NCBI GenBank assembly: GCA_025839675.1
Contig: CP104013.1
Location: 3,840,001 to 3,872,000 of the forward strand
Direction of reading: 5' to 3'
Origin: Candidatus Lokiarchaeum ossiferum
GTDB lineage: Archaea; Asgardarchaeota; Lokiarchaeia; Sigyniarchaeales; Promethearchaeaceae
DNA length: 32,000 nt
Below are positions 6,401 through 32,000 of this stretch, one piece after another; positions within the stretch are counted from its first letter, which is position 1, and each line of letters opens with the position of its first letter. Position numbers and translations under genes: made by a program. The notes under the pieces are model-generated. The model was given only the letters and a program-made list of their open reading frames with translations. It did no database searches and was not told the DNA's origin.

Positions 6401-9400
6401 GACTGGTCCATAGTGACGAATACTCCGGATGCAGTGGCCTTAGTGATGGATGAAAAAACAGATTTATATGGATATACTCATAAAAAAGTCTTGCACTGTG
6501 ACACTGGTCAAGGCGAGGAAGCCAATATTTCTCTCGTGCATGATTTTAGTGCGAATCAATCCCAAGGTACCATCGAATTTTGGGTGATGAAACAAAGTAC
6601 CGCCACCGCAACCATGAATTTTACCTTCATGGGAACTTCGGGAAATCTCTTTTCACTCTTTCTCGAGAATGGGGAATTTTGGTTTTCGGATAACACCACT
6701 ATCAACAATACTCACCAAGAATTTCACGATCTCTTCTGGTATCGGATCTGTGTTGACTTTATGGATAGCGGAACCTATCTCGGACTTGGAGATCACAGTT
6801 ATCAATTCCAAATTTTTAATAGAGAAGGAGATGTGCTTCTTTATGCCTCGGATCCTGCATCATTTACCACAACGGGTAATTTTACAGGATTTGACACCCA
6901 TATCGCAACGCACAACAGCTCTGCATCCAGTATCTATTTCGATGCTTTTGGCTATTCTTGGAGTCCGGATTATCGCTTAGGGAATAATGCCTATGAAGGA
7001 ATGTTGATCTCCCGGTCACTGCAAGAAGGGTTTAAATCTTGGGATTGGCAAGGTTATTCCCTAAATGATGCTGAAATAATAGATTTGCCATTCTTTAGTG
7101 ATGTCGTAATTCCTTTACCAAACTCACTTGGTATACAAACTCTTCAGTTATATGCAAATGACACGAGTGATTTTCAAACAATTTCACCCGTAGTTCATTT
7201 TTCATATTATTTTGATCGAAAACTCAATATAATAAAACACACCGAAAACGATGAAGTGGTAGCGGAATATACCATGTTTACCGGGAGCGGAATTATTAAG
7301 ATGGATCCAGCTACGGCTTTAAATCTTACATTAGAGTATAATACTATGAAAAATGATGATTTATGTAATACCAATGCGTCTCTATATTATCGAGTGAGTC
7401 ATGATTTCTGGAAAAAAGCATATAGCACGGGGAGTCTTTTTGGCGAAAACACCCTCAATTACCTCATTGGCCCAGATAATTACGACTTAGGTGATTCGGT
7501 AGACTATTACTTCGGATTCCAACAATACGATTTAAGTGGGCGATTCGTTCAACAATATTATTGGACTCAAACGGGAGTTAAATATTTCAACGAAACGGCA
7601 CAAATGGATGCCTTTCATAAAAAAGTAAGTCCGGTCCCCTATCAACTGACGTTGAATTATAGTGCCTATTTTCAAGCTGAAAAGACACAAAATTTTACCA
7701 CAGTTGAAGGTCACGAAGTATCCATGACAGGATTTGCACCTATTGCCATCAATGACTTTTCCGTCAAATTTTACAACACCACTGACGATATGACCGCATT
7801 TCAAGCCCTGTTTGATGAGCACGTATCCGCACTTACACATAAATTTAAAGAAAATTCCAGTATTATTACGGAAAGTAACTCCTTCCCACCAATCACGGAA
7901 GAGAATGAATGGATAAGTCCCTTTATTCTTCCAATCGGGGGAACATATGTCGAACAAGAGAGCACTATCCTTATCCCGAACATGCTTTATGAAACAAATG
8001 AAGCAAGTGAGGATAATAAATTGATGTTTACCAGAGAAGCCCTCAATCTTACCTATAAAGGAATCAAGATGGATTGGTTTAATGGAAAACGTGCCTTACG
8101 CGAATTTGAAACCTTTACCGGAGAGAGTTTTACGTGTATTCGGTTCGATTATTATACGGGAATCATGGTCTATTTCAATTATAATGATTTCACAGAGGGT
8201 GCAGGAAAACGAATCTTCTTTGGGTTAAAGGATAACAACCAAAGTTACCCAATCAACCTTAAGATTGAAATGCGCGAAGAACTCAACGATACGGATCAAG
8301 ATTTTGTGAACATGACTCTAGATGGGATCCTCTATGATCCGCCTGGAGATCGAAGCTACACCGAAATGTCTGCCGGAACTTCCATTACCACCGGTTGGTC
8401 CTTAGAAACCCAATCGGGAACAGATTTTCAAAAAGAACATCAACATCTCTTCGTAGGGTTTGGCTTTGAATCGGATGAATATAAGATTGATACCGAGGGT
8501 GATATTTATGAATTTGAACTCACTCATACGTATACCCATACGCTCAGTTCTTCCAAAGATTATACGAACTCAGAGTTGATAGGTCCAGGAAGAGGTGATT
8601 TGTATTTTGGAACTGGAACCTATATTTTCTATTATTTCTATGTAAATAATTATTACTTTGTGGTCAATCAATCTGATCCGGTGAATTTCCCCTATGATGA
8701 TATTTTGGTTCTGACGGTTGGTTCCCGAATTGAATATACAATTACACCAAATACCTCGTTTAGTGTCTTAGGATCTCATTTAGAAGATCTCGGAATGTCC
8801 GAGCTCGCATACGAAAATATTTTTGAAGATAATGAAATTTCAGGAGCTGAACGGAACTATGTGCAAGAATTGGAGTATTCCCCTCTACTATGGACTGCAG
8901 GAGGCGTGAATGAATTCGGATATTCTAGTGCCAGGACCGAAACGTCTTCCTTCCATTCCTATATGGAATACAGCAATGACACCTTTTTCACGTGGAGTCA
9001 ATGTTTGACCATGGGTGTCGGAGGTTCTTTTGGAGTGGGTGTCGAGGTGGACTGGTCCACGGGATGGAATATGTTTGAAACCTCCGGGAAAATTGCTACG
9101 CTTAATACTTGGTCCCGAGAATTTCTCAGCTATGAGTCAGTCGTCGGAGAAGAGCAAATCCTAGTACATTTGGAAGATGATGATGGTGTGCCTCTGGGAC
9201 ACCATGATCAATTCAAAATGCGGATTTTTAACGATACTCGCTATAGTTCAATAGGTTTCTTAATTGACAGTGATGCGAGTTATTCATCAAGTCCGCATGA
9301 ACCGTTTACTGGGGATCGGCGACCGCCCACTTTGTGTGATTTCTGCGGTTTGCCACCATATCTCAGAGATTCTGTCTCGTTGAATGTCCGCGCCTTTGAT

Positions 9401-10141
9401 GGAGAATTAGATGGCATTAGCGAAAACAACATTTGGAAAGTAAATTTCTACTATGATGATGATCCCACCTTTGGATCGGATTCAATCTTCATTGGAGTCC
9501 AAGGAGAAATGGAAAAAACCGCGTTGGACGATCCGGAAGAATTTGGACTGACTTGGGATTGCTCTCTTCTCGAAGGCGATTATTTTATCTTTGCCGAAGC
9601 CTATGATTATGGAACCCCAATACCGAATAAACTGGTATCAGACCCTCAGTTGGTGCATATTGATAATACCGCTCCGTCAGAATGTCATCTAATAGCCTAT
9701 GAACCTTATTATGATGCAATTCCTTTGTATGCCACTGCGACCGATGATGAAACGGATATTGCGTATATTGAATATTGGGATGGAGATCCGGTAACGGAAG
9801 GAAGTATCTTACTGGGTTGGAGTGATGTGAGCAGTGATTCTTATCGTTTCATCTGGAGTACCGATCCAAATGGTGATGATAATGGGATCCACCAAATTTA
9901 CGCAAAAGCCTTTGATTTGGCAGGAAATTCGAAAGTATCATCCGGACTCACCCTAAATGTCACCGATAGTCAAGCCGTGAGCGATCAATCGGATCAAACC
10001 GACCAAACGGATCTGCCCGATCAAGACGATGAATCACCTATCGATTGGCAAAACGCGCTTCTCGCAGGGGGAATGTCCACTGCCGGGATCTTGATCATTG
10101 GCTTAATCGTAGTCGGCGGCAACAAATTCCTAAAAAAATGA
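3410..10141 (+). CDS. Giant (2243 aa) cell-surface protein: signal peptide, two NosD-like right-handed beta-helix modules, LamG/ConA-like domain, large unassigned region, Ig-like domains, acidic linker, C-terminal TM anchor
   Basis: Uninterrupted 6.7-kb ORF. TTG start, with an alternative ATG at 3449. N-terminus is K-rich then hydrophobic. About 11 (S/A)GNG(I/M) coils occupy aa 140-490, and a second beta-helix starts around nt 5600. A LamG-like 'GTIEFWVMKQ...GNLFSLFLENGEFWF' lies at about nt 6330-6990. Ig-like modules with 'HIDNTAP' boundaries and 'AFDLAGNS' lie at about 9330-9960. An SDQSDQTDQTDLPDQDDES linker follows, and the tail is GGMSTAGILIIGLIVVGGNKFLKK*. Confidence 0.9.
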   Translation: MKSLIQRQQTKKLMIIFVFYSLIFTQLYPFIDWNAFYGNFSVSETKLPIHIPQSGLDDPIQVFHDDWEGFSGSGGSDSPYLIENLVIDAGGSSHGIDIYDCSLYFEIRNCTIYNAKNGIWLNTLSPGIAKVYNNTIYTCRGISGQISGNGIGLYSTNGIEIYNNTIYDIEGYSEAFSGNGMLLYISHYNEVHHNTIYDIWSGAVASTAHSGNGIMLTSAQYNNISYNQISSCSSATTSDTYAGNGIDNYHGDFNLISHNTIDDIRGGLGRYSGNGITCNNYYGITEENIIEENTISNCYGGTNYYTSNGILVHGESEYLVDSTQVLNNYIINCTGGDDIADGNDAHCGCGINLDRTIHSMVSGNEIYNCKGNSGARYAGNGIMNFNSEYTTVTQNIIENCSGYGNWAGNGIASAYENYNTISFNNISNSFCKGTGAILSGNGIINYQTDNTHIDYNRVSNANAGTGTYSGNGIYLCYEFDYSFVIGNIVRDCVKLPQAGAGWSILGTKDFDINDVFYNDAGDGWIGVCYRDNVDNRNDNNNYVGNTADVIYVDYGDRWLIEDNTVNTICTYGSKDNCIVGNFKNDGNAPQFNWYSNNKAENYFLKITSPEECKNYKGCGGIRAEYKWQYFGYELDQLNMYLDGALDIIHRPDKEFYIPWKANGSHSLLFQASDTSTTSFEYESKPITYTLENMASTEVVNIVRNTQEGGIDDPLALSYWDTSLDGDGTQFSPYEIKNLNIEIPANSPIGTAGISISNTDAFFVLKDCVIVGGVGHYGITISNVQNARIVNCTIIGIPTTYVPNDISATSYPIERGIFLDEDCVNNSIEQSDIYRTLSSGIKVDGNTNWIQNNVIANAQNNGITISGNGNTLLNNEIVPFGGPDYSDYHFLKGETDHTLNGILIEGGGSENTIEDCIIAGYPVSGINISTSICEENVIVGNRIENCAVLIHDQGANTHFAKITTPLDGAYFTGNNPLNEGYYSGTEGFQDVADGDLPVDWSIVTNTPDAVALVMDEKTDLYGYTHKKVLHCDTGQGEEANISLVHDFSANQSQGTIEFWVMKQSTATATMNFTFMGTSGNLFSLFLENGEFWFSDNTTINNTHQEFHDLFWYRICVDFMDSGTYLGLGDHSYQFQIFNREGDVLLYASDPASFTTTGNFTGFDTHIATHNSSASSIYFDAFGYSWSPDYRLGNNAYEGMLISRSLQEGFKSWDWQGYSLNDAEIIDLPFFSDVVIPLPNSLGIQTLQLYANDTSDFQTISPVVHFSYYFDRKLNIIKHTENDEVVAEYTMFTGSGIIKMDPATALNLTLEYNTMKNDDLCNTNASLYYRVSHDFWKKAYSTGSLFGENTLNYLIGPDNYDLGDSVDYYFGFQQYDLSGRFVQQYYWTQTGVKYFNETAQMDAFHKKVSPVPYQLTLNYSAYFQAEKTQNFTTVEGHEVSMTGFAPIAINDFSVKFYNTTDDMTAFQALFDEHVSALTHKFKENSSIITESNSFPPITEENEWISPFILPIGGTYVEQESTILIPNMLYETNEASEDNKLMFTREALNLTYKGIKMDWFNGKRALREFETFTGESFTCIRFDYYTGIMVYFNYNDFTEGAGKRIFFGLKDNNQSYPINLKIEMREELNDTDQDFVNMTLDGILYDPPGDRSYTEMSAGTSITTGWSLETQSGTDFQKEHQHLFVGFGFESDEYKIDTEGDIYEFELTHTYTHTLSSSKDYTNSELIGPGRGDLYFGTGTYIFYYFYVNNYYFVVNQSDPVNFPYDDILVLTVGSRIEYTITPNTSFSVLGSHLEDLGMSELAYENIFEDNEISGAERNYVQELEYSPLLWTAGGVNEFGYSSARTETSSFHSYMEYSNDTFFTWSQCLTMGVGGSFGVGVEVDWSTGWNMFETSGKIATLNTWSREFLSYESVVGEEQILVHLEDDDGVPLGHHDQFKMRIFNDTRYSSIGFLIDSDASYSSSPHEPFTGDRRPPTLCDFCGLPPYLRDSVSLNVRAFDGELDGISENNIWKVNFYYDDDPTFGSDSIFIGVQGEMEKTALDDPEEFGLTWDCSLLEGDYFIFAEAYDYGTPIPNKLVSDPQLVHIDNTAPSECHLIAYEPYYDAIPLYATATDDETDIAYIEYWDGDPVTEGSILLGWSDVSSDSYRFIWSTDPNGDDNGIHQIYAKAFDLAGNSKVSSGLTLNVTDSQAVSDQSDQTDQTDLPDQDDESPIDWQNALLAGGMSTAGILIIGLIVVGGNKFLKK
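3842..4828 (+). repeat. Protein-level periodic repeat: about 11 beta-helix coils marked by (S/A)GNG(I/M) every 29-40 residues
   Basis: G of the GNG motif falls at aa 148, 178, 211, 243, 273, about 308 (SNGI), about 348 (CGCGI), 379, 408, 440 and 470. I checked the DNA at 3851 (GGC AAT GGA ATA) and 4817 (GGC AAT GGT ATA). Confidence 0.8.
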
Positions 10142-10159
10142 TCATATATATCGCTCCAA

Positions 10160-10182
10160 GGGGAAAATCACCCTTTTTTTTT
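10160..10182 (+). terminator. Short GC stem plus T9 tract after the giant gene
   Basis: GGGG-AAAATCA-CCC followed by TTTTTTTTT (10174-10182), starting 19 nt after the stop. Oligo-T tracts act as archaeal terminators. Confidence 0.5.
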
Positions 10183-10267
10183 CAAAGCTTCCGTCGGACT
10201 CCGCATTCAGATTCAAATGACCACGCATCTTAGATTATTCTGACTAATGCTTATTTTTTCTTTTTTA

Positions 10268-10324
10268 TTTTAAGGAACACTATAGTGTTTATTTTAGGGA
10301 ACACTATTTTAAGGAACACTATAG
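10268..10324. repeat. 18-bp perfect direct repeat TTTTAAGGAACACTATAG (x2) with a degenerate middle copy; embedded 14-bp perfect palindrome
   Basis: Copies at 10268-10285 and 10307-10324 are identical. The middle copy TTTTAGGGAACACTAT is at 10292-10307. AACACTATAGTGTT (10276-10289) equals its own reverse complement. The element lies between the convergent stops at 10141 (+) and 10344 (-). Confidence 0.9.
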
Positions 10325-10343
10325 CAGTTTCTTTAACTGAAAA

Positions 10344-12047
10344 CTATTTTTTCTTCTTTCTCATTCGTTTTAACTTCGCATTATAAGAACTCCGAGACCG
10401 ACTTTGCCCCATGGCAGCGTAGAAAGATTTTTTATCACTTATTTTTTGTTCTACCGCTTGTGCCTCTTCCGATTTCCATTCATCCATTTCATCTTGAACA
10501 AGTTCATTCAATTCAGAGATATCCATATCATATTGTCCGCCTAAAGAGACATTACGAGCCATGGTTTGGTGGACTTGCGCCTCGGCAAATTTAATATCAC
10601 CCTTGGATCGTAATTTGGATGCCTTGGAGAGCTCAAAAGCCGTTGCAATTTTTGGGCTGTATGCTTTCTTGAAATTTTCCATATCCGGTGCTATTTCTAT
10701 TTCTTGACGATTGATGCGCATTTTTCGATTTCCTTGGGTATCAAGGTACTCTAATTGGATTTGAACAGGTATTTTGGTCCCTACGGGCAATTTGGTATCC
10801 TTTTGCTGAAATTTTAAATAAATTTCCCGATCGGGATAAAAAGCCCCCAATTTGATTGGATCTCCTCTTTTAATCTTATCTAAGGATTGAAGCACCTCCG
10901 CACCTTGAATTTCTTCCAAGACTAAAAATTCTGGAGAATAGATCCGCATCACTACATTTCGAGCAATGTAGTTGGTTCGGTGAAAACTTCCGAAGGCGGA
11001 TTCAACCTGATCTGCGGTAATGAATAACATTTGTCCCCCAGTATAGTCGGTGACTTTTCCAATCACATCTAAAGCAACTGAATTACCTCCTCCTTGTTCA
11101 CGTACCCCCACCATATCAACAATAATATTATTTTCTAAGCATCGTTTTGCAATATTGGAATAAAATCCTGCATCTTTTGAATCCTTGCCCAAACTATTTT
11201 CAATTGATCCTAAACCAACATTTGCGAGTCCATCTGTCAATAAAATGACTTTTCCACCTGTTTTTTTCGCTTGGGATTTCTGACTGGCAATGATGGTTTG
11301 AATTCCCATAAAAAGCCCTGGTCCGAGTGCAGTCATACTGCGATCAGTCATATTTTTGACGATTTTCGTCCAACCTTCATATATTTTTTCAATAGGTTGA
11401 AATGGGTATTTTTCAACTATTCTAGCAATTTCCTTCTCCATTTTGTTTTCTTTGAAGAAAAGAGGCCCATCCTCTACAATAATTTGTTTTTCTGGTGTGG
11501 GATATATGAACACATCGGATGAAAAAGGGATCAGAACAAATTTGGTTGCTGGAAAATCTGCCGTCAATTGGTGAATATTCTGCACCAACGCGTGTTTGAC
11601 TGCTTCTAACTTGCCACCTGCCATCGATCCGGAAACATCAATAACAGCGACTTGGATCGGAAAACCAGATATTGTCTTCTCCATTTTCATTTTCGAGAGA
11701 GCGTCATCTTCCTCCTTTCGTATTTCTTCAAGTAAAAATGCCATGTCTTCCATAGAAGAAACATCAGTGGATTCAGGTTCTATTCCATCCTTTAATAGAT
11801 GAAGAGCTTGATCATGCGAAACCGAATTTTCTTTCAGGCAAAATTCGCATTTATATGTAAAATTTTCCCCACTTTTTTGCAAGTGAGATTGATTGGTTAA
11901 AATTGAATTACAGAAACTACAAATAATCGGTTGATCTTGGATTTCTTTAGCAGTGGATAACTCACCAAAATTTAATGCGGTAATTAACGGAAAATCCTCG
12001 GGTTTTTCCACTTGTCGGGACACTTTACCAAAACTAAATTTGAACAT
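10344..12047 (-). CDS. Zn-ribbon + von Willebrand A (intact MIDAS) + beta-rich domain protein; Sec23/Sec24-like domain order
   Basis: C43-x2-C46-x20-C67-x2-C70; MIDAS D137-V-S-G-S141; LLTDG; the vWA-typical 'VDMVGV...VTDYTGGQMLF'; then a beta-rich region of about 120 aa and a charged helical tail ending KKKK. Confidence 0.85.
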   Translation of the reverse strand: MFKFSFGKVSRQVEKPEDFPLITALNFGELSTAKEIQDQPIICSFCNSILTNQSHLQKSGENFTYKCEFCLKENSVSHDQALHLLKDGIEPESTDVSSMEDMAFLLEEIRKEEDDALSKMKMEKTISGFPIQVAVIDVSGSMAGGKLEAVKHALVQNIHQLTADFPATKFVLIPFSSDVFIYPTPEKQIIVEDGPLFFKENKMEKEIARIVEKYPFQPIEKIYEGWTKIVKNMTDRSMTALGPGLFMGIQTIIASQKSQAKKTGGKVILLTDGLANVGLGSIENSLGKDSKDAGFYSNIAKRCLENNIIVDMVGVREQGGGNSVALDVIGKVTDYTGGQMLFITADQVESAFGSFHRTNYIARNVVMRIYSPEFLVLEEIQGAEVLQSLDKIKRGDPIKLGAFYPDREIYLKFQQKDTKLPVGTKIPVQIQLEYLDTQGNRKMRINRQEIEIAPDMENFKKAYSPKIATAFELSKASKLRSKGDIKFAEAQVHQTMARNVSLGGQYDMDISELNELVQDEMDEWKSEEAQAVEQKISDKKSFYAAMGQSRSRSSYNAKLKRMRKKKK

Positions 12048-14515: not shown

Positions 14516-16744
14516 ATGAATCCAAAAATTCAACATCACAAATTTATCTTTGTTCTTTCGTTTCTCCTAATCATTGGAGGAAGCATCTTTTTAAAAGAAC
14601 AATTTAAAGCAAATTCTAATAGCTTCGATATTCTTCCTGTATCTGCTCAAAATACATCAAAACTTGAGAATAGGGAATCTATTGAAATTGACATGTTAGA
14701 AGACTCTCTTTCTGATTATCCTTTTATTCTAGGAAATGGGAGCTTCTCTGATCCCTATATTATTCAAAATCTCTCCATTTCTCCAGATAATGGTGTTTGT
14801 ATCAAAATTGAAAATAATAGAGATTATTTCTTGATTAGTAATTGTGAGTTTCTTATTTTTAGCTATGGAATAATTATATTAAATTCAACCAACATCTTTA
14901 TTCATAATTGTATTTTTAGCAATCTTGAATTTGGAATACATCTTGTGGAAAGTCAAAATACTACAATCCAAAACAATTTATTCAGCCACTTACGAGAAGG
15001 AATTCTCCTTCAGGGTTCAAAAATCAATTCCATATGTACAAATACATTTTCTCACATCAGATTCGATGCGATTTCAATGATTGGGGCATGCTACTCGAAT
15101 TTAATTTCCTTTAACGCGATCTTTAATTCTGGGACTGGTATTCTAATGGAAAGAGGTAATGATAATAATCGAATTATTTCAAATAATATCTCAAATCAAT
15201 ACCGAAATGCTCTTTCAATTGATGGATGTTCAAATACCTTAATAAAAAACAATTTTATGTCGAGAAATGGTGAATTTGCGATAAATTTCCAAGATAATGA
15301 GGAAGAATCTACTAATACTACGATTAACAATAACACTTTGCATTTCAACCGCAAAGGTGCTATTAATTCGGCTTCAGAAGATAATCATCATATTTCTGAA
15401 AACGATATAAAGAAATCATTCCGTCAAATAGCTATCCTTACGTGTTTATATGTGTTGGCTCCTGGAGTAGGTATTTTCTTCCTCGTACTTATTATCAAAC
15501 GAAATTTCTCTTCTCAAGTGTTGGAATTTTGTTCAGAAAACGCATATCTGAGCGGTATTCTATTCTATATTGGAGCAAATATTCTGTTTATTGTACTTTA
15601 TCTTAATGGGAGACTTTACACGTTATGTAATTATTGCATAGATCCAACTTCTGAGCTAGCAATTATTTTCAATATCGTGGTATTTATTCTCTATATTCCA
15701 ATAGTATCTAACAAAATAAGTCGTAAAAAAGAATTTCTAACAGGGATGTTAATTTCATCCCTATTTTTGAGTTTCATCCATGTGATATTATACTTCATAT
15801 CTTTATCCACCATTGAGATTTCTGCATACTATAGGTATATATTCCAGTATGGTCTACAAATTTCAATTTTTTATTTGTTTCACACAGCCCTTATACTTTT
15901 TTGTTCCTTGGGGTTAAAGTTTAATAAGTCATCAAATGAAATGATGCTAGATAAAACAGTAAAGCTACCGAATATTTGGATAAAAATTAATTCAATTTTT
16001 CTAATTGTGTTGAATTTAATCCTTTTTCTTGTTCTTTATTTTGATCTTACCTTTATGTTGTCTGGGATATTGATATCCATTAATTTACTTCTTTTCAAGA
16101 AGAACTTAAGAGTGACTCTTTATCTTGTCATTCTAATAAATTTAATTCGAATGATATTTACTGTTTTTTGGGTGAACCACCAATTCTGGCCTTATTTTGA
16201 CTATCTAAATACTTATGGTTCCATATTCGTTATTTTATTTACAATTTTTGAAATTGGCTTAATATCAAGACAAAGAAATGAACTCACATCAGATTCAATG
16301 TTAATTTTTTTTGGAATTATTATTGCCTTATTTCTTCTGTGTGTTCCAACTTTTCTTTTAACTTTACCCAAAGTTGTAGAACCACCTATATATCGCCCTG
16401 TCGATGAACGTGTCTTCTTTCGTTTGTTTTCAATTATTCTAAACTCGTTGTGGATTATTTTGGGTTTGGCTTTTTCTATAGAATTATGTCAAATTTTAAA
16501 TCTAAAAACGAATCGTGTTTCAAGAAATATCATTAAAATTGGGTGGTTGTTAATGTCTATGATCATAGGGTTTGTCTTGATGGTTTCCATTGTAATTGCA
16601 ATAAAATATCTTTATGAATCAGGGACAAGTACATCAGAAAGGCTAACAGATATTCTGATATTTTTGTTTCCAAGTTCTATTTTGTCAAGTCTATTTTATA
16701 TCAAGTCCTATCGGAGTAAAAAAATACTCACCAACGATACTTAA
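14516..16744 (+). CDS. Membrane protein: signal anchor + NosD-like beta-helix ectodomain (about 250 aa) fused to a polytopic membrane domain of about 430 aa
   Basis: N-cap GNGSFSDPYIIQNLSISPDNGVCIKI. This is followed by N/I/S-rich coils of about 22 aa (IHNCIFSN, IQNNLFSH, ISNNISNQ, IKNNFMSR, INNNTLHF, ISENDIKK), then about 12 hydrophobic segments. Confidence 0.8.
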   Translation: MNPKIQHHKFIFVLSFLLIIGGSIFLKEQFKANSNSFDILPVSAQNTSKLENRESIEIDMLEDSLSDYPFILGNGSFSDPYIIQNLSISPDNGVCIKIENNRDYFLISNCEFLIFSYGIIILNSTNIFIHNCIFSNLEFGIHLVESQNTTIQNNLFSHLREGILLQGSKINSICTNTFSHIRFDAISMIGACYSNLISFNAIFNSGTGILMERGNDNNRIISNNISNQYRNALSIDGCSNTLIKNNFMSRNGEFAINFQDNEEESTNTTINNNTLHFNRKGAINSASEDNHHISENDIKKSFRQIAILTCLYVLAPGVGIFFLVLIIKRNFSSQVLEFCSENAYLSGILFYIGANILFIVLYLNGRLYTLCNYCIDPTSELAIIFNIVVFILYIPIVSNKISRKKEFLTGMLISSLFLSFIHVILYFISLSTIEISAYYRYIFQYGLQISIFYLFHTALILFCSLGLKFNKSSNEMMLDKTVKLPNIWIKINSIFLIVLNLILFLVLYFDLTFMLSGILISINLLLFKKNLRVTLYLVILINLIRMIFTVFWVNHQFWPYFDYLNTYGSIFVILFTIFEIGLISRQRNELTSDSMLIFFGIIIALFLLCVPTFLLTLPKVVEPPIYRPVDERVFFRLFSIILNSLWIILGLAFSIELCQILNLKTNRVSRNIIKIGWLLMSMIIGFVLMVSIVIAIKYLYESGTSTSERLTDILIFLFPSSILSSLFYIKSYRSKKILTNDT

Positions 16745-22413: not shown

Positions 22414-22657
22414 TCTTTTTTACTGAGATTCCTTTTTTCTCTCATTTCCTTTTACTAACAAAAGTTTCCGAAATCACATGCTTTTTTTGGTAAAATTACA
22501 ATTTTGATAAAATTGATTATTGATTAGCATTCTTGAAAAAATCAATTCTAAAGATGTTTGTCATTCTCAATATCGCAGTCATATGCAATAAAAACTCCCA
22601 TAGTGAGGTCTTAATTAGAATAATTAATTAATCGGTGAAAATTTAAAAGAAATTATG

Positions 22658-23782
22658 TTAAAAAAATAATCCCCACTCATGCAAGATATATTTAGAGGTA
22701 TTGTTTGTTGACACTGATTTTGGAGGAGGTAATGTAAAAAATGGGCAACCATCAGAATAATATGAAATTGTGAAAAAAACCCGTGTTACAGAGTATGAAT
22801 GCGTTGTGGATAATTGAAACACATCGTCAATTACATCTAAAGGGACTTGTCTCAAAATGTATGTACCTTCTTCATCAAAAAGCAGCTGTTCTTCAAACCA
22901 ATAGTTTGTGAAATCTTCAATTTCATTATCAAATAGCCCCAAAATAGATAAGCTTCTCTCAAAAAAAACTTGAAGATTGCTTATCGGTTCATCATTGACT
23001 TTGCATGTGTTTGCTACTTTGTTAATAACCCAACCATTTTGAAGTGTCTGTAAATCAAAGGGTTTAACCATTGCTTCATAAAAAAGATAGGGATAAGAAT
23101 TACAATTATCAGTTATATTACTTTTAAGTCCGACTTCAAAATTATTCCAAGTTATTTTTTGCCCCAATTCTACCTCTGGAATGGTTTTAAATACATAACC
23201 ATTGGGTACATTCACGGAAAGTGTTTCATTAAAGAGATTTTGATTTGAATTGTAAAAATAAATTACTGGTTTTAGGGCTTCAACAAAACATGCACGATGA
23301 ACAAGAGTAATTGCATGAACTCTGTGATTTTTATCAATTATGACTGCTGTTTGATTGTCTATGTATCTACTATCACTGATATTGTTTGGAATTTTCACTA
23401 TATAGATCAAATTTGCTTGAAGGCTGAGATTTGCTGTTGCTTCATATAGAATGCGATCGGTTTTTACAAGACTAATACTTTCCACAATTCTCCATGTGGT
23501 GAAGCTAATCTGATCCTTTCGTCTTTCCGGTAGTGAATATACTTCAACAAAAGAAGGCTCACTATCAGCATAAGTGTATCCATCAGCTTCAGAACTATTC
23601 CAATTTACTGTGATGTTTAAAAGATGCGTTTCCTTTTCTAATTTGCTGTAAATATATGTTCCACCAATCCCAAGTGCAGAAATTAAAAACAATCCTATAA
23701 AAAAAAGACTTGTGATTTTTTTCTTCATCAAGTGGTAATTGTTGTGCTCGTATTTATTCAATGGGGTCAGAAATTCGAACAA
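22658..23782 (-). CDS. Secreted or membrane-anchored protein of unknown function
   Basis: The track start is TTG. The in-frame ATG at 23728 gives MKKKITSLFFIGLFLISALG (signal-like), with an AATAAATA element about 28 nt upstream. No family recognised. Confidence 0.6.
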   Translation of the reverse strand: MFEFLTPLNKYEHNNYHLMKKKITSLFFIGLFLISALGIGGTYIYSKLEKETHLLNITVNWNSSEADGYTYADSEPSFVEVYSLPERRKDQISFTTWRIVESISLVKTDRILYEATANLSLQANLIYIVKIPNNISDSRYIDNQTAVIIDKNHRVHAITLVHRACFVEALKPVIYFYNSNQNLFNETLSVNVPNGYVFKTIPEVELGQKITWNNFEVGLKSNITDNCNSYPYLFYEAMVKPFDLQTLQNGWVINKVANTCKVNDEPISNLQVFFERSLSILGLFDNEIEDFTNYWFEEQLLFDEEGTYILRQVPLDVIDDVFQLSTTHSYSVTRVFFTISYYSDGCPFFTLPPPKSVSTNNTSKYILHEWGLFF

Positions 23783-23907
23783 AAAAAAAACGGATTTGTT
23801 GATCCTAATAAAGGATCCACAGCTTATTTGATCAAAGTTCGATTAGAGGATTTCAATCTGATAACTCTCGGAATGAGTAAAATTGGATAAAAAAAAAATT
23901 TTTTTCT

Positions 23908-24156
23908 TCACAGTTTACCCGAAATATATTGACAGTATCCGTACTTAATTTGCCCAAATTTCTCAATAATCCCACATGGAAAGTTTTCACACTCAAAGCA
24001 AGTTTGAATTTTCCGTGAATATGCACAACCCGCAATTTTACAGACTTTATTCTCATGAGGATAGCATCCATCAGGTCCATTTGGACATTTTCCCTGCACT
24101 CGTCGCGGGCATTTTTCACATGCAATTCCACAGACTGCGATTCGTATTTTTTCCAT
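23908..24156 (-). CDS. Cys-rich DUF3795-like protein
   Basis: IAVCGIACEKCP...GKCP..PDGC......CKIAGCA.....TCFECENFPC pattern. I prefer this over the overlapping 23853..24182 ORF. Confidence 0.7.
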   Translation of the reverse strand: MEKIRIAVCGIACEKCPRRVQGKCPNGPDGCYPHENKVCKIAGCAYSRKIQTCFECENFPCGIIEKFGQIKYGYCQYISGKL

Positions 24157-24314
24157 GTAATAAAAAAAGAGATTTTATCCAATAAAATTAGAAGCTCAGT
24201 AGTTTTTTAATTTTTAACATTATTGTGAATTTGACGGATGTATTTAAAATATCTTGTAAAATAAACAGAAAACGATTTAAACGAAGATCAAAAGATTTAA
24301 ATATTTATGTTATT

Positions 24315-24413: not shown

Positions 24414-25001
24414 ATGATTAAACGTGTTAAAAAACTCGGTTCTGATTCCACTACTGCGTTGATCTCGGATGATTCAATCAGGGCTTATCTTGCCAATTTC
24501 GAGTCTGAATTATCTCGAGGCATTAGCACTATTTGTGTCCTAAAAATTATTAAAAATTCTGGAGACCAAGGCATTACGGGATACCAAATTTTGAAGGAAT
24601 TGGAAGAACAATCGAAATCTATGCTGATCCTTGAAGAAGGGCGATTATATCCTTTTTTGAAGAAATTGGAAAATTGGAAATCTAGCACTGGTGTTGTTAA
24701 CTTAATCAGTGCCCGAAAAGAACAAACTGGGAGAAAAAAGAAATTTTATTTCATTACTCCCGAGGGAGTACAAATTTTGAATCACTTAGATGGATTTTTT
24801 TCAAAACTACTAGAATACATCTCGCCCATGCTCTCATTTCAAGTCGAATTGCAAGAAGATCACTATTTATATTGCCCAAATTGTGCTAATAAAATTGATC
24901 TGAATGAGGATATCATTTTTTGCGCAATGTGCGGGTTAGATATTGAAAATATTAAAAATCAAAGATTAGAAGGATTAGAAGGAGGCAATATCAATGACTA
25001 A
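24414..25001 (+). CDS. PadR-family winged-helix transcriptional regulator with a C-terminal Zn-ribbon
   Basis: ICVLKII......GITGYQILKELEE.........EGRLYPFLKKLE...........RKKKFYFITPEG matches PadR hallmarks. The C-terminus has CPNC-x14-CAMC. Confidence 0.85.
   Translation: MIKRVKKLGSDSTTALISDDSIRAYLANFESELSRGISTICVLKIIKNSGDQGITGYQILKELEEQSKSMLILEEGRLYPFLKKLENWKSSTGVVNLISARKEQTGRKKKFYFITPEGVQILNHLDGFFSKLLEYISPMLSFQVELQEDHYLYCPNCANKIDLNEDIIFCAMCGLDIENIKNQRLEGLEGGNIND
24964..24984 (+). repeat. 9-bp in-frame tandem duplication GATTAGAAG x2 running into a GGAGG Shine-Dalgarno for the downstream gene
   Basis: 24964-24972 equals 24973-24981 and encodes RLEGLEG. GGAGG (24980-24984) lies 9 nt before ATG 24994. 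Confidence 0.85.
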
Positions 25002-26028
25002 TCAACAAATTAAAACCTTTTTAAAAGAAATAGAAGAAAAATTACCAGAATGGTTAAAAGATAAGAAAGCCGATGTCACTGACATTTTAGATGAAATAGA
25101 ATCACATATTTGGGAAAAAGCATCCGAAATCTCCCATAATGATGATCCAGACGAATTATCAATAAAGCAAGCAATTGTTTCAATGGGAACCCCCGCAGAT
25201 ATTGCTAAAGATTATAAAAAACGTGGAACACCCAAGTTCTTTATCTCAGAGGAGTTATTTCCTCTCTATGTTAGGACTTTGACCGTTGCTATCAGCGTAA
25301 TTGCTGGTATTGCAGTACTTGCTAGTATTCCATGGACAGGAAATTTTCAATTCTGGAAATTCCTAGGGGATCTCTGGAATGCCATATTCACAACTGCTGT
25401 ATATGTTTCTTTCTTTGCGACACTTATATTTGTCGGATTATCGATGGAGGGATACTTACCAGAAGATTTGGGTGTCAAGGGAAATATGAAACTGACATAC
25501 GAATTCAAAGTGGCTCACAAAGAAAAAGGAAAAGGTAAGAAAAATAAATTCTACACTCCAGGTGAATGGTTCTTTGGAGCAGTATTTGGCTTTGTATTCG
25601 GTGCAATTTTAATTCTCCAACCAATTCCACAAATGAGTGAACTATTTGGAACAGAAATGTTGGCATGGTTCCGACTCTTAGGATTTCTCTCCATTGCGGA
25701 AGGAACTTTGAATTTGTTTCACATTATTCTTCAGAAATCCAATATTACCGGGCATCAATTCTTGAAATTACTCTTGATTGTTGTCAAAATCTTAGGGATA
25801 TTCCTCCTCTTGCAATTGTTGGAAAATCCTGATATAATCACGATTATTTCAATAGAAAATGGAGTAGTTATTAGCCGCCCCCTAGTTGGATATTATCTCA
25901 GTAGTGAAAAAACCTTTAGAACTATTGTAATTGTGCTCTTAGTGTTTAGTGGCTTAGGAATAATGGATGAATTTTACAAAATGGTCTCTTTGCGTTATAA
26001 GTTTAATGCAAGTCAGATCGAAGAATAA
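24994..26028 (+). CDS. DUF1700/HAAS-like N-terminal helical domain fused to a membrane domain of about 6 TM; partner of the PadR regulator
   Basis: The N-terminus 'QQIKTFLKEIEEKLPEWLKDKKADVTDILDEIESHIWEKASE...SMGTPADIAKDY' fits the DUF1700 pattern. It overlaps the PadR gene by 8 nt (ATGACTAA), and about 6 hydrophobic helices follow. Confidence 0.7.
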   Translation: MTNQQIKTFLKEIEEKLPEWLKDKKADVTDILDEIESHIWEKASEISHNDDPDELSIKQAIVSMGTPADIAKDYKKRGTPKFFISEELFPLYVRTLTVAISVIAGIAVLASIPWTGNFQFWKFLGDLWNAIFTTAVYVSFFATLIFVGLSMEGYLPEDLGVKGNMKLTYEFKVAHKEKGKGKKNKFYTPGEWFFGAVFGFVFGAILILQPIPQMSELFGTEMLAWFRLLGFLSIAEGTLNLFHIILQKSNITGHQFLKLLLIVVKILGIFLLLQLLENPDIITIISIENGVVISRPLVGYYLSSEKTFRTIVIVLLVFSGLGIMDEFYKMVSLRYKFNASQIEE

Positions 26029-26043: not shown

Positions 26044-26164
26044 GATTTATCTATAATTTTGTCGGATTTTGTCAAACATTATTTATATATAATCCCGATA
26101 CGTTTTAGAGAATCTCAGATACCGCATACCTTTTTATGGGTGAAGTTGCTTCATATAGTCAAGG

Positions 26165-26770: not shown

Positions 26771-26938
26771 TTAATTACATCTTTGTCAACCAGAAGGATC
26801 TCTTTTTTTTGGAAATTTGGTCAATGGATGGTAGTTTTGTTAAGGTGAACCTTTTAATTTGTTAGCCTATCAAACTTTTTGATTTATTTATAAAAAACGA
26901 AATCTATTAAATAAAAAGAACCTATTTTAGTTCGTAAA

Positions 26939-27649: not shown

Positions 27650-27693
27650 AATAAAACCAACATCTTGAAATCTGTTGACAAAGGCGAAATTTG

Positions 27694-27703
27694 TTATATA
27701 AAA
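27694..27703 (+). promoter_or_regulatory. TATA box inside the track ORF's 5' extension; supports a leaderless start at 27727
   Basis: TTATATAAAA is centred about 29 nt upstream of the in-frame ATG at 27727. Confidence 0.5.
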
Positions 27704-27726
27704 AATTCTTTTTTTACTTGAGTTTC

Positions 27727-28149
27727 ATGAGCATGAATCATTTTTATGGTGTTGCCAAGGTAAATTCGCGGGGTCAGATAGGGATTCCAAAACAAGCCCG
27801 CGAAGATTTTGCACTTAATTCAGGGGACAATCTTGCATTATTGGTTGGGGTTCTTCCCCACAGTAAAGATGCTATTATGTTAATGAAAGCGGAAGAATGG
27901 TATGGGGTACCAGAATCGGCCCCGATCAAAAATTCCAAGAATCGGGAGTTTGGTGGTTTGGTTAAGCTCGCAGAACGGGGCCAAATTGTCATACCTAAAA
28001 AAATACGCGAGCAAATTGGGATCACTTCTGGATTACAAATTTTAGTCTTATCACATGAAAAAACCCATAGCCTTGTTTTAGCTTTATTAAATCAAGATGC
28101 TGTTGGAAAATGGGCTGAAAATATGATAGGAAGGTCTAATAACGATTGA
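27727..28149 (+). CDS. Tandem AbrB/MazE/SpoVT-domain DNA-binding protein
   Basis: Two copies of the swapped-hairpin motif: VAKVNSRGQIGIPKQAREDFALNSGDNLALL and LVKLAERGQIVIPKKIREQIGITSGLQILVL. The track ORF starts at TTG 27691, but I moved the start to ATG 27727 because of the TATA box. Confidence 0.8.
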   Translation: MSMNHFYGVAKVNSRGQIGIPKQAREDFALNSGDNLALLVGVLPHSKDAIMLMKAEEWYGVPESAPIKNSKNREFGGLVKLAERGQIVIPKKIREQIGITSGLQILVLSHEKTHSLVLALLNQDAVGKWAENMIGRSNND

Positions 28150-28258
28150 ATTCCTTATACTAAAAGTTTATATTGATGTGTTGTCTTTTTCATATTAATA
28201 TGAATTTCATACTCTCGTATTTTAAATATCTACAGGTAATTGGGGGGGTTTTATACTA

Positions 28259-29074
28259 ATGGTTATGATTGACAATATTCCTTCCATTATTTTTCTGTGG
28301 TGTTATATGTTCATAATTTGGGGCAATTTGATCCATATTTGGATGAAAAAACCCGCAGAAAGAGCAAAATCGTGGAAGCTATTATTTGGTGCCTTTTTCC
28401 TGCTCGCCTTTGGGGATGTTTTTCACTTGCTTCCTAGAACTTATCTTTGGTTCCAATATTCTATAGGACACCAAATCGATATTTATACCAGTCCAATGGG
28501 TGTTTCGATATATGGGATTGGACTCATTTTAACAGGAATAACTATGACTTTCTTCTATTTGTTGTTTTACTTGTTCTGGAAAGAACATTTTATTAATCGT
28601 GTGAATATTCCTGGACTTCTGAACATTAAGAAACGAATAAAAATCTTTGATGGAATCGCTTTTGGTTCTGTCATAATCAGGAACATTCTAATTTTGCTAC
28701 CTTGGAATAACTACGGAAGTGAACCCGTGTTATATTTAGGTTTCATTAGTTTTCGATTACTTACCAATTTACCTCTGTACATTATTGGATTGGAAGTATT
28801 ATACTTGTTTCTGAAATCTACCCGAAAAACTCAAAGTACAAATGTAGTTCATCCAGATATAACAACTGCTCTCAAACGAAGTTCTGTATGGATTATTGTA
28901 TCTTTTGTCACGTATACCATCACATTGTTGGGAAGTCCTGCAATTCCTCTGTTAGGGATGATGATGATTCCGAAAACGATCGCATATTTGCTCGTGTTTT
29001 ATTATATGAAAAAATTTATCTTACTGAATCCCTCAAGTATGAAATTCGAGAAAGAATTTGCACTTGCGATTTAA
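28259..29074 (+). CDS. Seven-TM membrane protein of unknown function
   Basis: Seven hydrophobic segments read from the translation. A G-rich stretch (28242-28248) lies about 10 nt before the ATG. No family recognised. Confidence 0.6.
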   Translation: MVMIDNIPSIIFLWCYMFIIWGNLIHIWMKKPAERAKSWKLLFGAFFLLAFGDVFHLLPRTYLWFQYSIGHQIDIYTSPMGVSIYGIGLILTGITMTFFYLLFYLFWKEHFINRVNIPGLLNIKKRIKIFDGIAFGSVIIRNILILLPWNNYGSEPVLYLGFISFRLLTNLPLYIIGLEVLYLFLKSTRKTQSTNVVHPDITTALKRSSVWIIVSFVTYTITLLGSPAIPLLGMMMIPKTIAYLLVFYYMKKFILLNPSSMKFEKEFALAI

Positions 29075-29102
29075 TTCAATATGAATTCTGGGTTTTCTTT
29101 TT

Positions 29103-30890
29103 TTAGGTTACTTCTAAGCTCGGGATATCCCTTTTCAGTAATGCTTTAATTTCTAAAGGATTAAATAAGAAAATTAGTGGTAATGAGAACCAAATAACAT
29201 GAAAATAATAATTGAAGTCTATTAGGATAAACTTTGGTGTAATTTGTATCAATCCGAGCATTTCTATATTTTTTTCTATGAAAATAACTATACCTAACAA
29301 TCCCCCCACCAAGTTTAGAATAATAAAAATGGTAAGTCGATTTTTTTCCCCTTTTCTGATTTCTGAATTTAGCAAGTCTTTTACTAATTTTTTCAAAACA
29401 AATATTATTCCAATCATTACAAGAAAACCGATTGAATATAGATAGGAGGAATAGATTCCAAAACCAAAATAACCGATTAGAATTAAAATGGGCGGAACAG
29501 CTACAAAATAAATATAGGCAAAATAATTTTTAAAGATCTGAAATTTCTTCTTTTTTACCAATTCCTTTGTCTCTTTATTTTCTTCAATGTTTTCTCCAGC
29601 ATTTTTCTTATCAAAATCTGAATTTTTTTTCCATCTATTTTGATAGAGCAAATACACTATATAGATAACCGAAAAAACTATAAAATAAGAAATAAATATT
29701 GGGTCCTCTTTCCAGATTTTGATAGAATTGATTTCATTGTCAGATATTGTGTTTAGTTTAGGTTCATCAGAATAAATTCCTTTGTTTGATATTACATTAA
29801 GAAAGTTATTTGAGATGAGATTACCAACGGAATTAAGGAGTACTATACCATTTCTGTTATTATTTACTGTATTATTAATGATTTTTGAATTATTAGAATT
29901 TTTAAAAAGAATTCCAGATTCATAAAGGAGCCCATACTGAAAATTTTCCATGTTATAATCATTGGCAGGTGAAGACCAGAAATTCCTGATTCTATTCGTT
30001 TCATGACCTATTGTGGTAATGGTATTGTTTATTACGGAAACCCGATGACAAGAATCAATCACTACTGGATCAAACTTAGTAATACGAAAAATGTTATTAC
30101 TAATAACTCCATCTGAGGACCACAATACCGTCATCGGATCAAAAGTTGAGTTTATTTCATTGTTTGATATTGTATAATTTAATAAGTAAGAAAATTGAAT
30201 TGCTCCTCCAAAATCAATTTTGTTATTTTGGACACTGATATTGCTCCCTCCTCTAAATACTAAACCACCTCTATGAGATATAGTATTTGTTTCGAAAATT
30301 AAATTCTGAGTTCGAGAAATACACATTTGATATATTTTTCCAAATAATATGTTTCCAGTAATATTCAAATTTAGGTTGGAATAGGGAGAAAAATTGAATA
30401 TTGGTGAATGTGAGACATTTATTTCATTCTTCGTGATGGATACATTTGAAATACGGTCAAACTCAATACCAAAAGCCACATTCGAAATAATATTCATATT
30501 AATTCGAATATTTGAACAATTTTCGATTATTATTGCACTTCTGGAGTTGTTAATACCCGAAATTAAACAATTTTGGATTAAAACATATTTCGTCGTATTT
30601 TGGATTGAAATTCCATGAGAGGATGAATTGGGACTTAGAATGAGATTTTCAATAATAATTGGATATTTTGAAGAGTGTCCATTATATGGGTCATTCGCAA
30701 ATTGTTCCAAATCACTATCATCCTGAACTAAAATGAGCGCTGAACTTTCTTGGATGACATTATTAACTTGCGGAAAATAAACTTGGTCGAAATTTTCTGT
30801 ACTCAGATCAAAGTTCAAATCATTAGGAACACGCAAAAATATTGAGGAAATTAGAATAATGATAGCTAGTAATTTTGGATAAGATTTCAT
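29103..30890 (-). CDS. Signal peptide + NosD-like beta-helix ectodomain (about 370 aa) fused to a 5-TM C-terminal module
   Basis: N-cap SSKYPIIIENLILSPNSSSHGISI. Many coils follow (IQNCLISG, IENCSNIRINMNIISN, ITKNEINV, VQNNKIDF, ISNNEINS, ISNNIFRI, INNTITTI, INNTVNNN, ISNNFLNV, ISDNEINS). Then come a TM, a K/E-rich linker and four more TM. Confidence 0.8.
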   Translation of the reverse strand: MKSYPKLLAIIILISSIFLRVPNDLNFDLSTENFDQVYFPQVNNVIQESSALILVQDDSDLEQFANDPYNGHSSKYPIIIENLILSPNSSSHGISIQNTTKYVLIQNCLISGINNSRSAIIIENCSNIRINMNIISNVAFGIEFDRISNVSITKNEINVSHSPIFNFSPYSNLNLNITGNILFGKIYQMCISRTQNLIFETNTISHRGGLVFRGGSNISVQNNKIDFGGAIQFSYLLNYTISNNEINSTFDPMTVLWSSDGVISNNIFRITKFDPVVIDSCHRVSVINNTITTIGHETNRIRNFWSSPANDYNMENFQYGLLYESGILFKNSNNSKIINNTVNNNRNGIVLLNSVGNLISNNFLNVISNKGIYSDEPKLNTISDNEINSIKIWKEDPIFISYFIVFSVIYIVYLLYQNRWKKNSDFDKKNAGENIEENKETKELVKKKKFQIFKNYFAYIYFVAVPPILILIGYFGFGIYSSYLYSIGFLVMIGIIFVLKKLVKDLLNSEIRKGEKNRLTIFIILNLVGGLLGIVIFIEKNIEMLGLIQITPKFILIDFNYYFHVIWFSLPLIFLFNPLEIKALLKRDIPSLEVT

Positions 30891-30913
30891 CTATAATTTT
30901 ATAATAGTGATTC

Positions 30914-30922
30914 AAAATATAA
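30914..30922 (-). promoter_or_regulatory. TATA box about 28 nt upstream of ATG 30890
   Basis: The minus strand reads TTATATTTT. Confidence 0.45.
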
Positions 30923-31033
30923 GTCTTATTTCACAAGATTGAATAGAAGTATTTTGATAAGAAAAGAGTGAAAAAAGAGAACTAAGTATTTTTAAACTTA
31001 AATAAATGGATAATCAAACAAAAAAAAAAGGAA

Positions 31034-31366
31034 TCAAACAGGTATATCTCTCCTATCGGAGATCATTATAGAAGAAATTGTCAATACCATGGTATATCCG
31101 AATAAAATCAACATATCTCGTAGAACATTTTCATAGCTGTGAGAAACCATGATTCTCGCGGGTTCGTAATAGAAAAAGAGACTCAAGAATTTAATATCTT
31201 GAATATTTTCTTGAAAACTGGTGTAGAATGTGCCAATTACGAAGAACACAACAAAATTGCCGAAAGCCGCTCCCGTTGCATTCTTTCTATTTAAGAACGT
31301 TGAGAAAAAGAACGTTAAGAACGTTGATAAACTTTCATCTCTATTTCTAACATCGTTTTTGTTCAT
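31034..31366 (-). CDS. Small membrane protein resembling the C-terminal third of an ABC-2/NosY-type permease
   Basis: 110 aa. The end, 'FLSLFFYYEPARIMVSHSYENVLRDMLILFGYTMVLTISSIMISDRRDIPV', resembles the last loop and helix and the ...F.rRDi terminus of ABC-2 permeases (from memory). It has its own TATA (ATTATATAT, plus-strand 31389-31397) about 27 nt upstream. Confidence 0.4.
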   Translation of the reverse strand: MNKNDVRNRDESLSTFLTFFFSTFLNRKNATGAAFGNFVVFFVIGTFYTSFQENIQDIKFLSLFFYYEPARIMVSHSYENVLRDMLILFGYTMVLTISSIMISDRRDIPV

Positions 31367-31452
31367 ATAAATTTTATTTTATTGAACCATATATAATGGT
31401 AGAAATTGAAGAAAAAAATGAATAGCATTAAATGGGCTAATTTTTTGCTTTT

Positions 31453-32000
31453 TTATTGAACTTCTATTACTTGAGAACTCTTGTTTAGCAAATATTTGAT
31501 TTCTTTAGGTTTTATCAGGAAAAATAGAGGTAATGTAAACCAAATAACATGGAAATAATAGCTATAATCTATTTGGATAAATTTTGGTGTAATAAGAATT
31601 AATCTTAGCATTTCTATGGATTTTCCTAAGATAATAAAGATACCTAACAGTCCCCCAATCAAATTTAAAATGAAAATAAAAATAAGTCTATAATTTTTCT
31701 TCTTTTTGAATTCTGCAGTCATATGATCTTCTGCAAATATTTTCAAAGCAAAAATTATTCCAATCATCACAACAAAACCGATTGTATAGATAGGAAAAGT
31801 ATTGAAATTCAAGCCACAATAACCGAATAGAAGTAAAAATGGGGGAACGCCAAAGAAGTAAATATATGTAAAGATGTCTTTCAATGTTGAAAAGTTACTT
31901 ATTTTTTCTTTTTCCTTTACTTTTCTTTTATTTTCAAAACCTTCATGGGTTTTTCCATCAACAAGATCTGATTCCTTTTTGACATTTTTTTGGATTAATA
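31453..32000 (-). CDS. Paralogue of 29103..30890 (5-TM module plus linker), 5'-truncated by the window edge
   Basis: The 143 aa from the track align colinearly with the C-terminus of the 29103..30890 product. The track 'start' at 31884 is TTG. I translated 31885-32000 on the minus strand and found no stop (LIQKNVKKESDLVDGKTHEGFENKRKVKEKEKISNFST-), which matches the charged linker of the paralogue. Confidence 0.75.
   Translation of the reverse strand, partial: LIQKNVKKESDLVDGKTHEGFENKRKVKEKEKISNFSTLKDIFTYIYFFGVPPFLLLFGYCGLNFNTFPIYTIGFVVMIGIIFALKIFAEDHMTAEFKKKKNYRLIFIFILNLIGGLLGIFIILGKSIEMLRLILITPKFIQIDYSYYFHVIWFTLPLFFLIKPKEIKYLLNKSSQVIEVQ

Follow-up and report, generated by a model that had tools for sequence, protein, structure and literature searches.

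A family of beta-helix membrane proteins, here called D, is encoded at the right end of a 32,000-nucleotide (nt) stretch of DNA from Candidatus Lokiarchaeum ossiferum (Ca. Lokiarchaeum sp. B-35). The whole stretch is referred to as the window. All coordinates below are those of the window unless another locus is named, and its G+C content ranges from 27 to 44%. Two D genes lie in tandem on the minus strand. D1 is the product of a 595-amino-acid (aa) open reading frame (ORF), and D2 is its neighbouring paralogue. A 110-aa ORF stands between them and carries P', a duplicate of the 3' end of an ABC-2 permease gene. The locus was compared with that of a sister strain (L001; CP163304.1, 6.27 Mb), which was fetched through the D1 orthologue P0001, and with that of a second, more distant and metagenome-derived Lokiarchaeum lineage (L002/L003). 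The features are as follows, with transmembrane abbreviated as TM, AlphaFold2 as AF2 and the predicted local distance difference test as pLDDT.

29103..30890, minus strand: D1, the putatively resident gene of a 595-aa predicted surface protein (ORF list; Pfam Beta_helix; syntenic orthologue P0001, 97%)
29721..30668, minus strand: beta-helix ectodomain of D1, aa ~75–390 (AF2 pLDDT, Foldseek, sequons, sliding identity)
29106..29705, minus strand: orphan five-TM membrane module of D1, aa 396–595 (hydropathy, positive-inside counts, cluster search)
30891..31033, minus strand: permease–D1 spacer (sequence; identity profile against the sister strain)
31034..31312, minus strand: P', duplicated ABC-2 permease 3' end, codons ~180–271, last two TM helices
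31034..31366, minus strand: the 110-aa ORF as listed, that is, junction codons and P'; protein P0042 of the public record
31291..31327, minus strand: junction with a 13-nt repeat, TCAACGTTCTTAA (alignment; exact motif matches)
31313..31452, minus strand: 140 nt that would have arrived together with D2 (comparison with D1-downstream DNA and related loci)
31453..32000, minus strand: D2, the 3' 181 codons of the 598-aa P0002; the gene runs ~1.25 kb past the window edge
28259..29074, plus strand: 271-aa polytopic membrane protein, the convergent neighbour of D in all three lineages

Two D copies and a permease fragment

D2 is cut by the window edge, as had been proposed in an earlier note made from the letters of the window. 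The frame of the ORF at 31453..31884 stays open as far as nt 31998, and the part of D2 inside the window aligns without gaps to residues 415–594 of D1, with 51% amino acid identity (expectation value E 4e-52) and 67% nucleotide identity over that stretch. The full-length D2 exists in the database as P0002, a 598-aa protein encoded on a 6,035,313-bp contig, and the C-terminus of P0002 is 100% identical to the window translation. The beta-helix ectodomain that the same note predicted for the second copy is present and complete in P0002. Over their full length D2 and D1 are 49% identical, and they are indeed tandem paralogues. No relative of D2 with more than 50% identity was found in a collection of 5.8 billion clusters.

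The 110-aa ORF had been read as the C-terminal part of an ABC-2 permease, which is borne out by comparison with the sister strain. By itself the ORF matched Pfam ABC2_membrane_2 (PF12679) only below the threshold (E 0.078, 12.7 bits versus a cut-off of 27.2), and it covers profile positions 170–282 of 283 rather than the full six-helix permease domain. In a BLASTP search its last 85 residues were 95% identical to the C-terminus of P0005, the 272-aa permease of L001 (E 3e-58). The last 91 codons are a copy of the 3' end of the permease gene; the first ~18 codons are junction sequence and the remainder is P'. The ORF is annotated in the public record and clusters with the permease. Judged from these matches, it is a fragment of a permease and not a permease.

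The window and L001 are collinear from 24242 to 31312, and the collinearity ends sharply inside the permease at about codon 180. The 13-nt string TCAACGTTCTTAA was found on both sides of this breakpoint (31291..31303 and 31315..31327), which makes two matches versus none expected in the window. The nucleotide identity of P' to the sister permease is 94%, versus about 99% in the flanks. P' has four amino acid changes, including I198N and F264S inside TM helices, whereas over these 91 residues the intact permease of the window genome (P0006) does not differ from the sister protein. Four changes in P' against an unaltered intact copy suggest that function was lost recently. Six synonymous and four non-synonymous changes separate P' from the 3' end of the sister permease, and the synonymous bias (binomial p 0.006 against neutrality) suggests that most of this divergence built up when the sequence still belonged to a working gene.

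The earlier note also held that the ABC permease had been reduced to this fragment, which is contradicted by the rest of the genome. A full 271-aa permease is kept (P0006; NEF87_003264, UYP46979.1), which is 96% identical to that of the sister strain, and together with an ATPase (UYP46980.1) it adjoins a syntenic acetyltransferase gene (NEF87_003266, UYP46981.1). In L001 the gene order is acetyltransferase (minus strand), ABC ATPase (325 aa), ABC-2 permease (272 aa), D, 271-aa membrane protein (minus strand), MazE-like gene and GTP cyclohydrolase II. The same order of ATPase, permease, D (P0003, 604 aa), 269-aa protein, MazE-like gene and cyclohydrolase was found in L002/L003, and D is present as a single copy in both L001 and L002/L003. 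Because UYP46979–46981 are numbered consecutively and match the order of the left flank of L001, we infer for B-35 the order acetyltransferase, ATPase, permease, D2, P' and D1. Since L001 and L002 have one D each and D2 has no relative above 50% identity, D2 and P' are specific to the B-35 strain.

The permease–D1 spacer contains a T10 run 3' of the permease stop codon and a TATA-like TTATATTT about 28 nt 5' of the D1 ATG. It is about 99–100% identical to the spacer of the sister strain, and the sole mismatch lies within the T-run. With a T10 run after the permease stop and a TATA-like box before its own ATG, D1 is probably its own transcription unit. The 140 nt following D2 carry a T7 run 36–42 nt after the D2 stop codon. 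Beyond the junction, no similarity of these 140 nt was found to the DNA downstream of D1, nor to L001 or L002.

The ectodomain and the membrane module of D

The proposed fusion of a signal peptide, a beta-helix and five TM helices in D1 is supported in agreement by the ORF, Pfam, AF2 and hydropathy. A signal peptide (aa 1–20) is followed by the beta-helix ectodomain, TM1, a cytoplasmic linker rich in lysine and glutamate, and four further TM helices. D1 scored 60.9 bits against Pfam Beta_helix (PF13229; cut-off 25.9 bits, E 1.4e-16). In an AF2 model built on four family members, stacked strands occupy residues 78–391, with pLDDT mostly above 90 from about residue 90 to about 390 except in the loop 298–321. 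Both the Pfam score and the modelled fold place D1 among the right-handed parallel beta-helix proteins of PF13229. Hydropathy revealed the N-terminal signal segment and five TM segments. Lysine and arginine residues number 12 in loop 1, 5 in loop 3 and 3 in the tail, versus 0 in loop 2 and 1 in loop 4, and from this distribution the topology is predicted to be N-out and C-in. All of the 14 N-x-S/T sequons of D1 lie in the ectodomain, between residues 88 and 339.

When the D1 ectodomain was submitted to Foldseek, the best matches were generic beta-helix enzymes, tailspikes and the adhesin PfbA (E 1e-5 to 1e-3), and the top 50 comprised glycoside hydrolases, lyases, epimerases, tailspikes and an adhesin. 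D1, D2, the 271-aa neighbour and the permease fragment were also searched with PHROGs and PADLOC, which gave one marginal match only, to a virion structural family (E 0.0016); such a match is typical of beta-helix repeats. No paper was found in the literature that mentions Lokiarchaeum ossiferum and a beta-helix together.

The five-TM module was used for a profile search among 1.84 billion cluster representatives, and only four clusters at 50% identity were found (P0001, P0002, P0003 and P0004). All of those that could be traced come from Lokiarchaeum or close relatives, which agrees with the earlier description of an uncharacterised family and shows that it is narrowly distributed. TM4 contains the conserved motif GGLLG, and TPxFIxIDxxYYF..IWF.LPL is conserved in the last outer loop and TM5. 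No significant match to the module was found in Pfam or among PDB sequences. When the module alignment was compared with an alignment of the ABC-2 permeases by hhalign, the probability was only 0.3%, and no affinity to PF12679 was seen. By these searches the module is unrelated to ABC-2 permeases and is an orphan.

One of the four clusters, P0004, is a stand-alone five-TM module without a beta-helix (202 aa), encoded by the ORF 9938..10546 of another locus, L004. In L004 9443..10817 this module gene is flanked on one side by a 129-aa gene and on the other by a 258-nt direct repeat in which the 3' end of that gene recurs with 81% identity, and a DDE transposase is encoded about 3 kb away. The layout of gene, module and partial gene is the same as that of permease, D2 and P'.

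Two more beta-helix proteins are encoded in the window. The first, of 742 aa (14516..16744, plus strand), has a signal segment in addition to a beta-helix (Pfam 8.7e-20) and ~12 predicted TM helices. It shares 36% identity with D over 106 aa of the N-cap (E 7e-7), and Pfam gave no match to its TM part. Because both elements are combined in this protein, the same genome has a second kind of beta-helix/polytopic membrane fusion. The other, a giant of 2243 aa (3410..10141, plus strand), carries beta-helix repeats as well as a signal segment; it has one TM anchor, at the C-terminus, and 36 N-x-S/T sequons.

Origin of the second D copy

The ages of the D2 copy and of the P' junction were compared by synonymous divergence (dS), non-synonymous divergence (dN) and their ratio (omega). 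D1 differs from its sister orthologue by a dS of 0.025 (omega 0.49), which is close to the value for GTP cyclohydrolase II (dS 0.028, omega 0). The dS between P' and the 3' end of the sister permease is 0.115 (omega 0.16), and that between D1 and D2 over the last 181 codons reaches 0.90 (dN 0.35, omega ~0.40). For most neighbour genes omega is 0–0.11, and for a 201-aa gene it is 0.40; the substitutions are few. Because dS is 0.90 between D1 and D2 and 0.115 between P' and the permease, D2 and the P' junction differ in age. From the same mismatch, no single duplication made both P' and D2, unless gene conversion later homogenised P'. A recent duplication in situ is ruled out, the D1–D2 dS being about 36 times the strain divergence. 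The "locally expanding" family of the earlier note amounts to one extra copy in one strain, and judging from the D1–D2 dS this copy was acquired already diverged.

D varies strongly between lineages. Between L001 and L002 the amino acid identity is 90.5% for the ATPase, 89.7% for the permease, 94% for GTP cyclohydrolase II, 79% for the MazE-like gene and 78% for the 271-aa neighbour, but only 43% for D. By these comparisons D appears to be hypervariable, far beyond its neighbours. The central coils are its most variable part, with a sliding identity of 25–40%, and three blocks are conserved: the N-cap (alignment columns 61–110), the last coils with TM1 (341–420), and TM4, the following loop and TM5 (531–600). 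The signal peptides of D1 and D2 are identical at 19 of 19 positions, versus ~30% identity to that of P0003. The probability of this by chance is about 3e-4, and the identity therefore marks a boundary of recombination or conversion.

The neighbouring 271-aa gene (28259..29074) has only 67–80% nucleotide identity to the sister strain inside flanks of about 99%, with a dS of 1.17 and an omega of 0.11. The window allele is closer to that of L002 (87% amino acid identity) than to that of the sister strain (81%), and looks like an allele swapped by recombination. Pfam gave no match for the protein, which may be functionally linked to D. Since this neighbour carries a swapped and diverged allele, recombination with diverged DNA does occur at the locus. 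On the plus strand at 24414..26028, the gene for a PadR-family regulator, which has a zinc ribbon at its C-terminus, overlaps that for a 344-aa HAAS-domain membrane protein (a PadR/HAAS sensor pair). The dS of these genes against the sister strain is 0.08–0.13, which exceeds the 0.025 of D1 and is further evidence of mosaic recombination.

We consider it probable that the locus holds two diverged copies of a variable surface protein restricted to Lokiarchaeum, that D2 was captured already diverged, and that the permease fragment is the scar of this event and is now decaying. D1 would be the resident orthologue. D2 would have diverged strongly before it joined between the ABC-2 permease gene and D1. 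It may represent a distant paralogue, or else an alternative allele that came from another Lokiarchaeum lineage. The event would have been an illegitimate recombination of the microhomology type with its breakpoint at permease codon ~180, and its exact route is a reconstruction. Homology-facilitated illegitimate recombination is a known kind of event. In this process the 3' end of the permease gene would have been duplicated, and the duplicate would be the present 110-aa ORF. The D protein itself consists of a signal peptide, a right-handed beta-helix of ~320 aa, predicted to be extracellular, with N-glycosylation sequons, and a five-helix module with a predicted cytoplasmic C-terminus. D is probably exposed at the surface and glycosylated, and it may serve as a variable adhesin, receptor or glycan-binding protein.

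Several observations weigh against this explanation. No donor of D2 was found in the searches. D1 and D2 are 49% identical to each other and each is 42–43% identical to P0003, a relation that an old duplication in situ predicts as well. The direct adjacency of the permease and D2, just past nt 32000, was deduced from the order of accession numbers, and the upstream region of D2 is presumed to be identical to that of D1. The adjacency of the ABC pair and D is kept in two lineages, and a functional link between them is possible. In two AF2 runs on the membrane module the pLDDT stayed below 50, a low confidence.

An old tandem duplication in situ of the permease 3' end, spacer and D is unlikely, but it is the likeliest of the alternatives. 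According to it, the D bodies drifted apart to 49% identity, and P', the spacer and the first 57 nt of D were held close to their partners by gene conversion. D2 would later have been deleted from the sister strain and from the L002 lineage through recombination between the repeats formed by the permease and P'. The closer relation of D1 and D2 to each other than to P0003 and their identical signal peptides fit this history, and the direct repeats around D2 would permit a clean deletion to the single-copy state of L001 and L002. However, two independent losses or a very recent loss would be required, and no D2 orthologue survives anywhere searched. Conversion should also have erased the four amino acid changes in P', two of which disrupt helices, and the eight-fold gap in dS between P' and D would have to be attributed wholly to conversion. 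In addition, the 140 nt after D2 bear no trace of D1-downstream DNA. Capture of an already diverged D2 is therefore preferred.

It is very improbable that the 110-aa ORF is instead a functional two-helix membrane protein, expressed from its own promoter and modulating the ABC transporter or D. The reading frame is intact and has an ATG, a TATA-like ATTATATAT lies ~23–31 nt upstream of it, its substitutions relative to the sister permease are mostly synonymous, and the public record annotates a protein. On the other hand, it occurs in one genome only, and I198N and F264S fall within TM helices that are unchanged in the intact copy. A bias towards synonymous changes is to be expected if the sequence had mostly diverged before it was truncated. 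The TATA-like element may be due to chance, as such strings are common in a spacer of ~72% A+T. The analogous partial duplicate beside the D-family fragment in L004 suggests a by-product of the mechanism.

A broader proposal can be made only tentatively, and its parts have to be taken jointly. D proteins would be genus-specific and highly variable Asgard surface receptors, whose conserved five-helix module would be more than an anchor and may signal across the membrane or assemble with the conserved 271-aa neighbour. Ectodomain alleles would be shuffled from one Lokiarchaeum lineage to another in the manner of cassettes, each recombination leaving the upstream gene partly duplicated, and the layout seen twice, in permease–D2–P' and in gene–module–partial gene of L004, would be its trace. 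Viruses or syntrophic partners would drive the shuffling. Taken as a whole, this proposal is doubtful.

Elsewhere in the window, a 1.7-kb segment at 22533..24241 is missing from the sister strain. It contains a 374-aa ORF whose N-terminus carries a hydrophobic segment, and a cysteine-rich ORF of 82 aa; no direct repeats were found around it. The gene at 10344..12047 (minus strand) encodes a 567-aa protein with matches to VWA and to the Sec23/Sec24 trunk domain (5.6e-9); such eukaryote-like signatures are characteristic of Asgard genomes.

Significance and comparison with known systems

Lokiarchaeum ossiferum is among the very few cultured Asgard archaea. Its surface molecules should mediate contact with viruses and syntrophic partners, which plays a part in models of how eukaryotes arose. 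The present locus identifies a genus-restricted and strongly variable surface protein, whose membrane module was seen nowhere else in sequence searches. It also indicates that diverged alleles are exchanged and stacked at one locus in strains that are otherwise ~99% identical. The practical value is modest, in that D is a candidate for use as a strain marker or as a surface antigen of the cultured strains. The locus further provides a worked example of a partial gene duplicate that reads as a recombination scar.

NosD-type beta-helix proteins are normally soluble periplasmic partners of a NosF/NosY ABC module. The earlier note regarded D as a form tethered to its own membrane module, with the permease reduced, and suggested descent from a NosDFY-like ancestor. 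In a fuller form of this reading, D still works with the NosFY-like ABC transporter. D resembles NosD (PF05048, TIGR04247) in that it is also a right-handed parallel beta-helix outside the membrane and matches the Pfam NosD repeat model (45.2 bits, E 9.9e-12). The Lokiarchaeum D genes adjoin a DrrA-type ATPase and an ABC-2 permease of PF12679, which we take to be the Pfam family that also holds NosY. The adjacency of ATPase, permease and D is kept in two Lokiarchaeum lineages, and one permease homologue from the Joint Genome Institute (JGI) is named "multi-copper enzyme maturation permease".

These likenesses do not extend to the family or to its genomic context. With the TIGR04247 model the D ectodomain scored 18.7 bits versus a cut-off of 300, far below the NosD threshold. 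A family profile run against all PDB sequences matched no solved NosD at E up to 1, and NosD was absent from the Foldseek top 50. The beta-helix of D is thus generic and not of the NosD type. D is anchored by five predicted TM helices of its own. The gene order is ATPase, permease and D here versus D-F-Y in nos clusters, and the nos context (nosZ, nosR, nosL with obligate nosF and nosY) was not found: no nos genes turned up in the Pfam scan, which covered most window ORFs of 100 aa or more, or among the precomputed annotations for the L001 locus (21.8 kb). A T-run and a TATA-like box part the permease from D, an intact permease is kept, and the membrane module has no relation to it.

The distribution of the ABC pair is also at odds with a NosDFY-like ancestor. 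Permease homologues with 36–67% identity were found in 51 distinct loci fetched from other Promethearchaeota, including Promethearchaeum syntrophicum MK-D1. A tblastn search of these loci with D1, D2, P0003 and P0004 gave no D-family match in the DNA covered, and where the region downstream of the pair was checked, it holds housekeeping genes (IMPDH, purH, CoA ligase and the like). Since the pair occurs without D in these 51 loci, it is an older two-gene unit, beside which D was placed only in Lokiarchaeum. The ABC pair would accordingly be independent of the beta-helix and no NosFY partner of it. A NosDFY-like origin of the D locus is hardly credible in view of the 18.7 of 300 bits and of an ABC pair kept across the phylum without a beta-helix neighbour. 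The names "NosD" and "NosY" at this locus do not signify copper-enzyme maturation, and a tempting but wrong annotation is removed.

The best fold matches of D come from the membrane-anchored right-handed beta-helix surface proteins, adhesins and glycan-active enzymes of PF13229, such as the pneumococcal adhesin PfbA, the AlgE4 epimerase, PL6 lyases and phage tailspikes. D shares with them an extracellular domain with an asparagine-rich ladder, and the 742-aa and 2243-aa beta-helix proteins of the window are likewise anchored in the membrane. In contrast, the sequence identity of D to these proteins is only 9–15% and no catalytic residues could be assigned. Its anchor is a conserved five-helix module and not a single helix or a sortase-type signal.

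D is also comparable to variable surface-antigen loci that are remodelled by recombination, of which divergent alleles of the S-layer glycoprotein in Haloferax are an example (PMC5867893). As in such loci, D is a highly diverged coding region in a well-conserved neighbourhood. Its 5' end is conserved and followed by an abrupt drop in identity, the neighbouring allele is swapped, and short repeats are found at the junction. The Lokiarchaeum locus differs in that the D2 allele was added in tandem instead of replacing the resident one, and in that a partial duplicate of the upstream gene was left behind.

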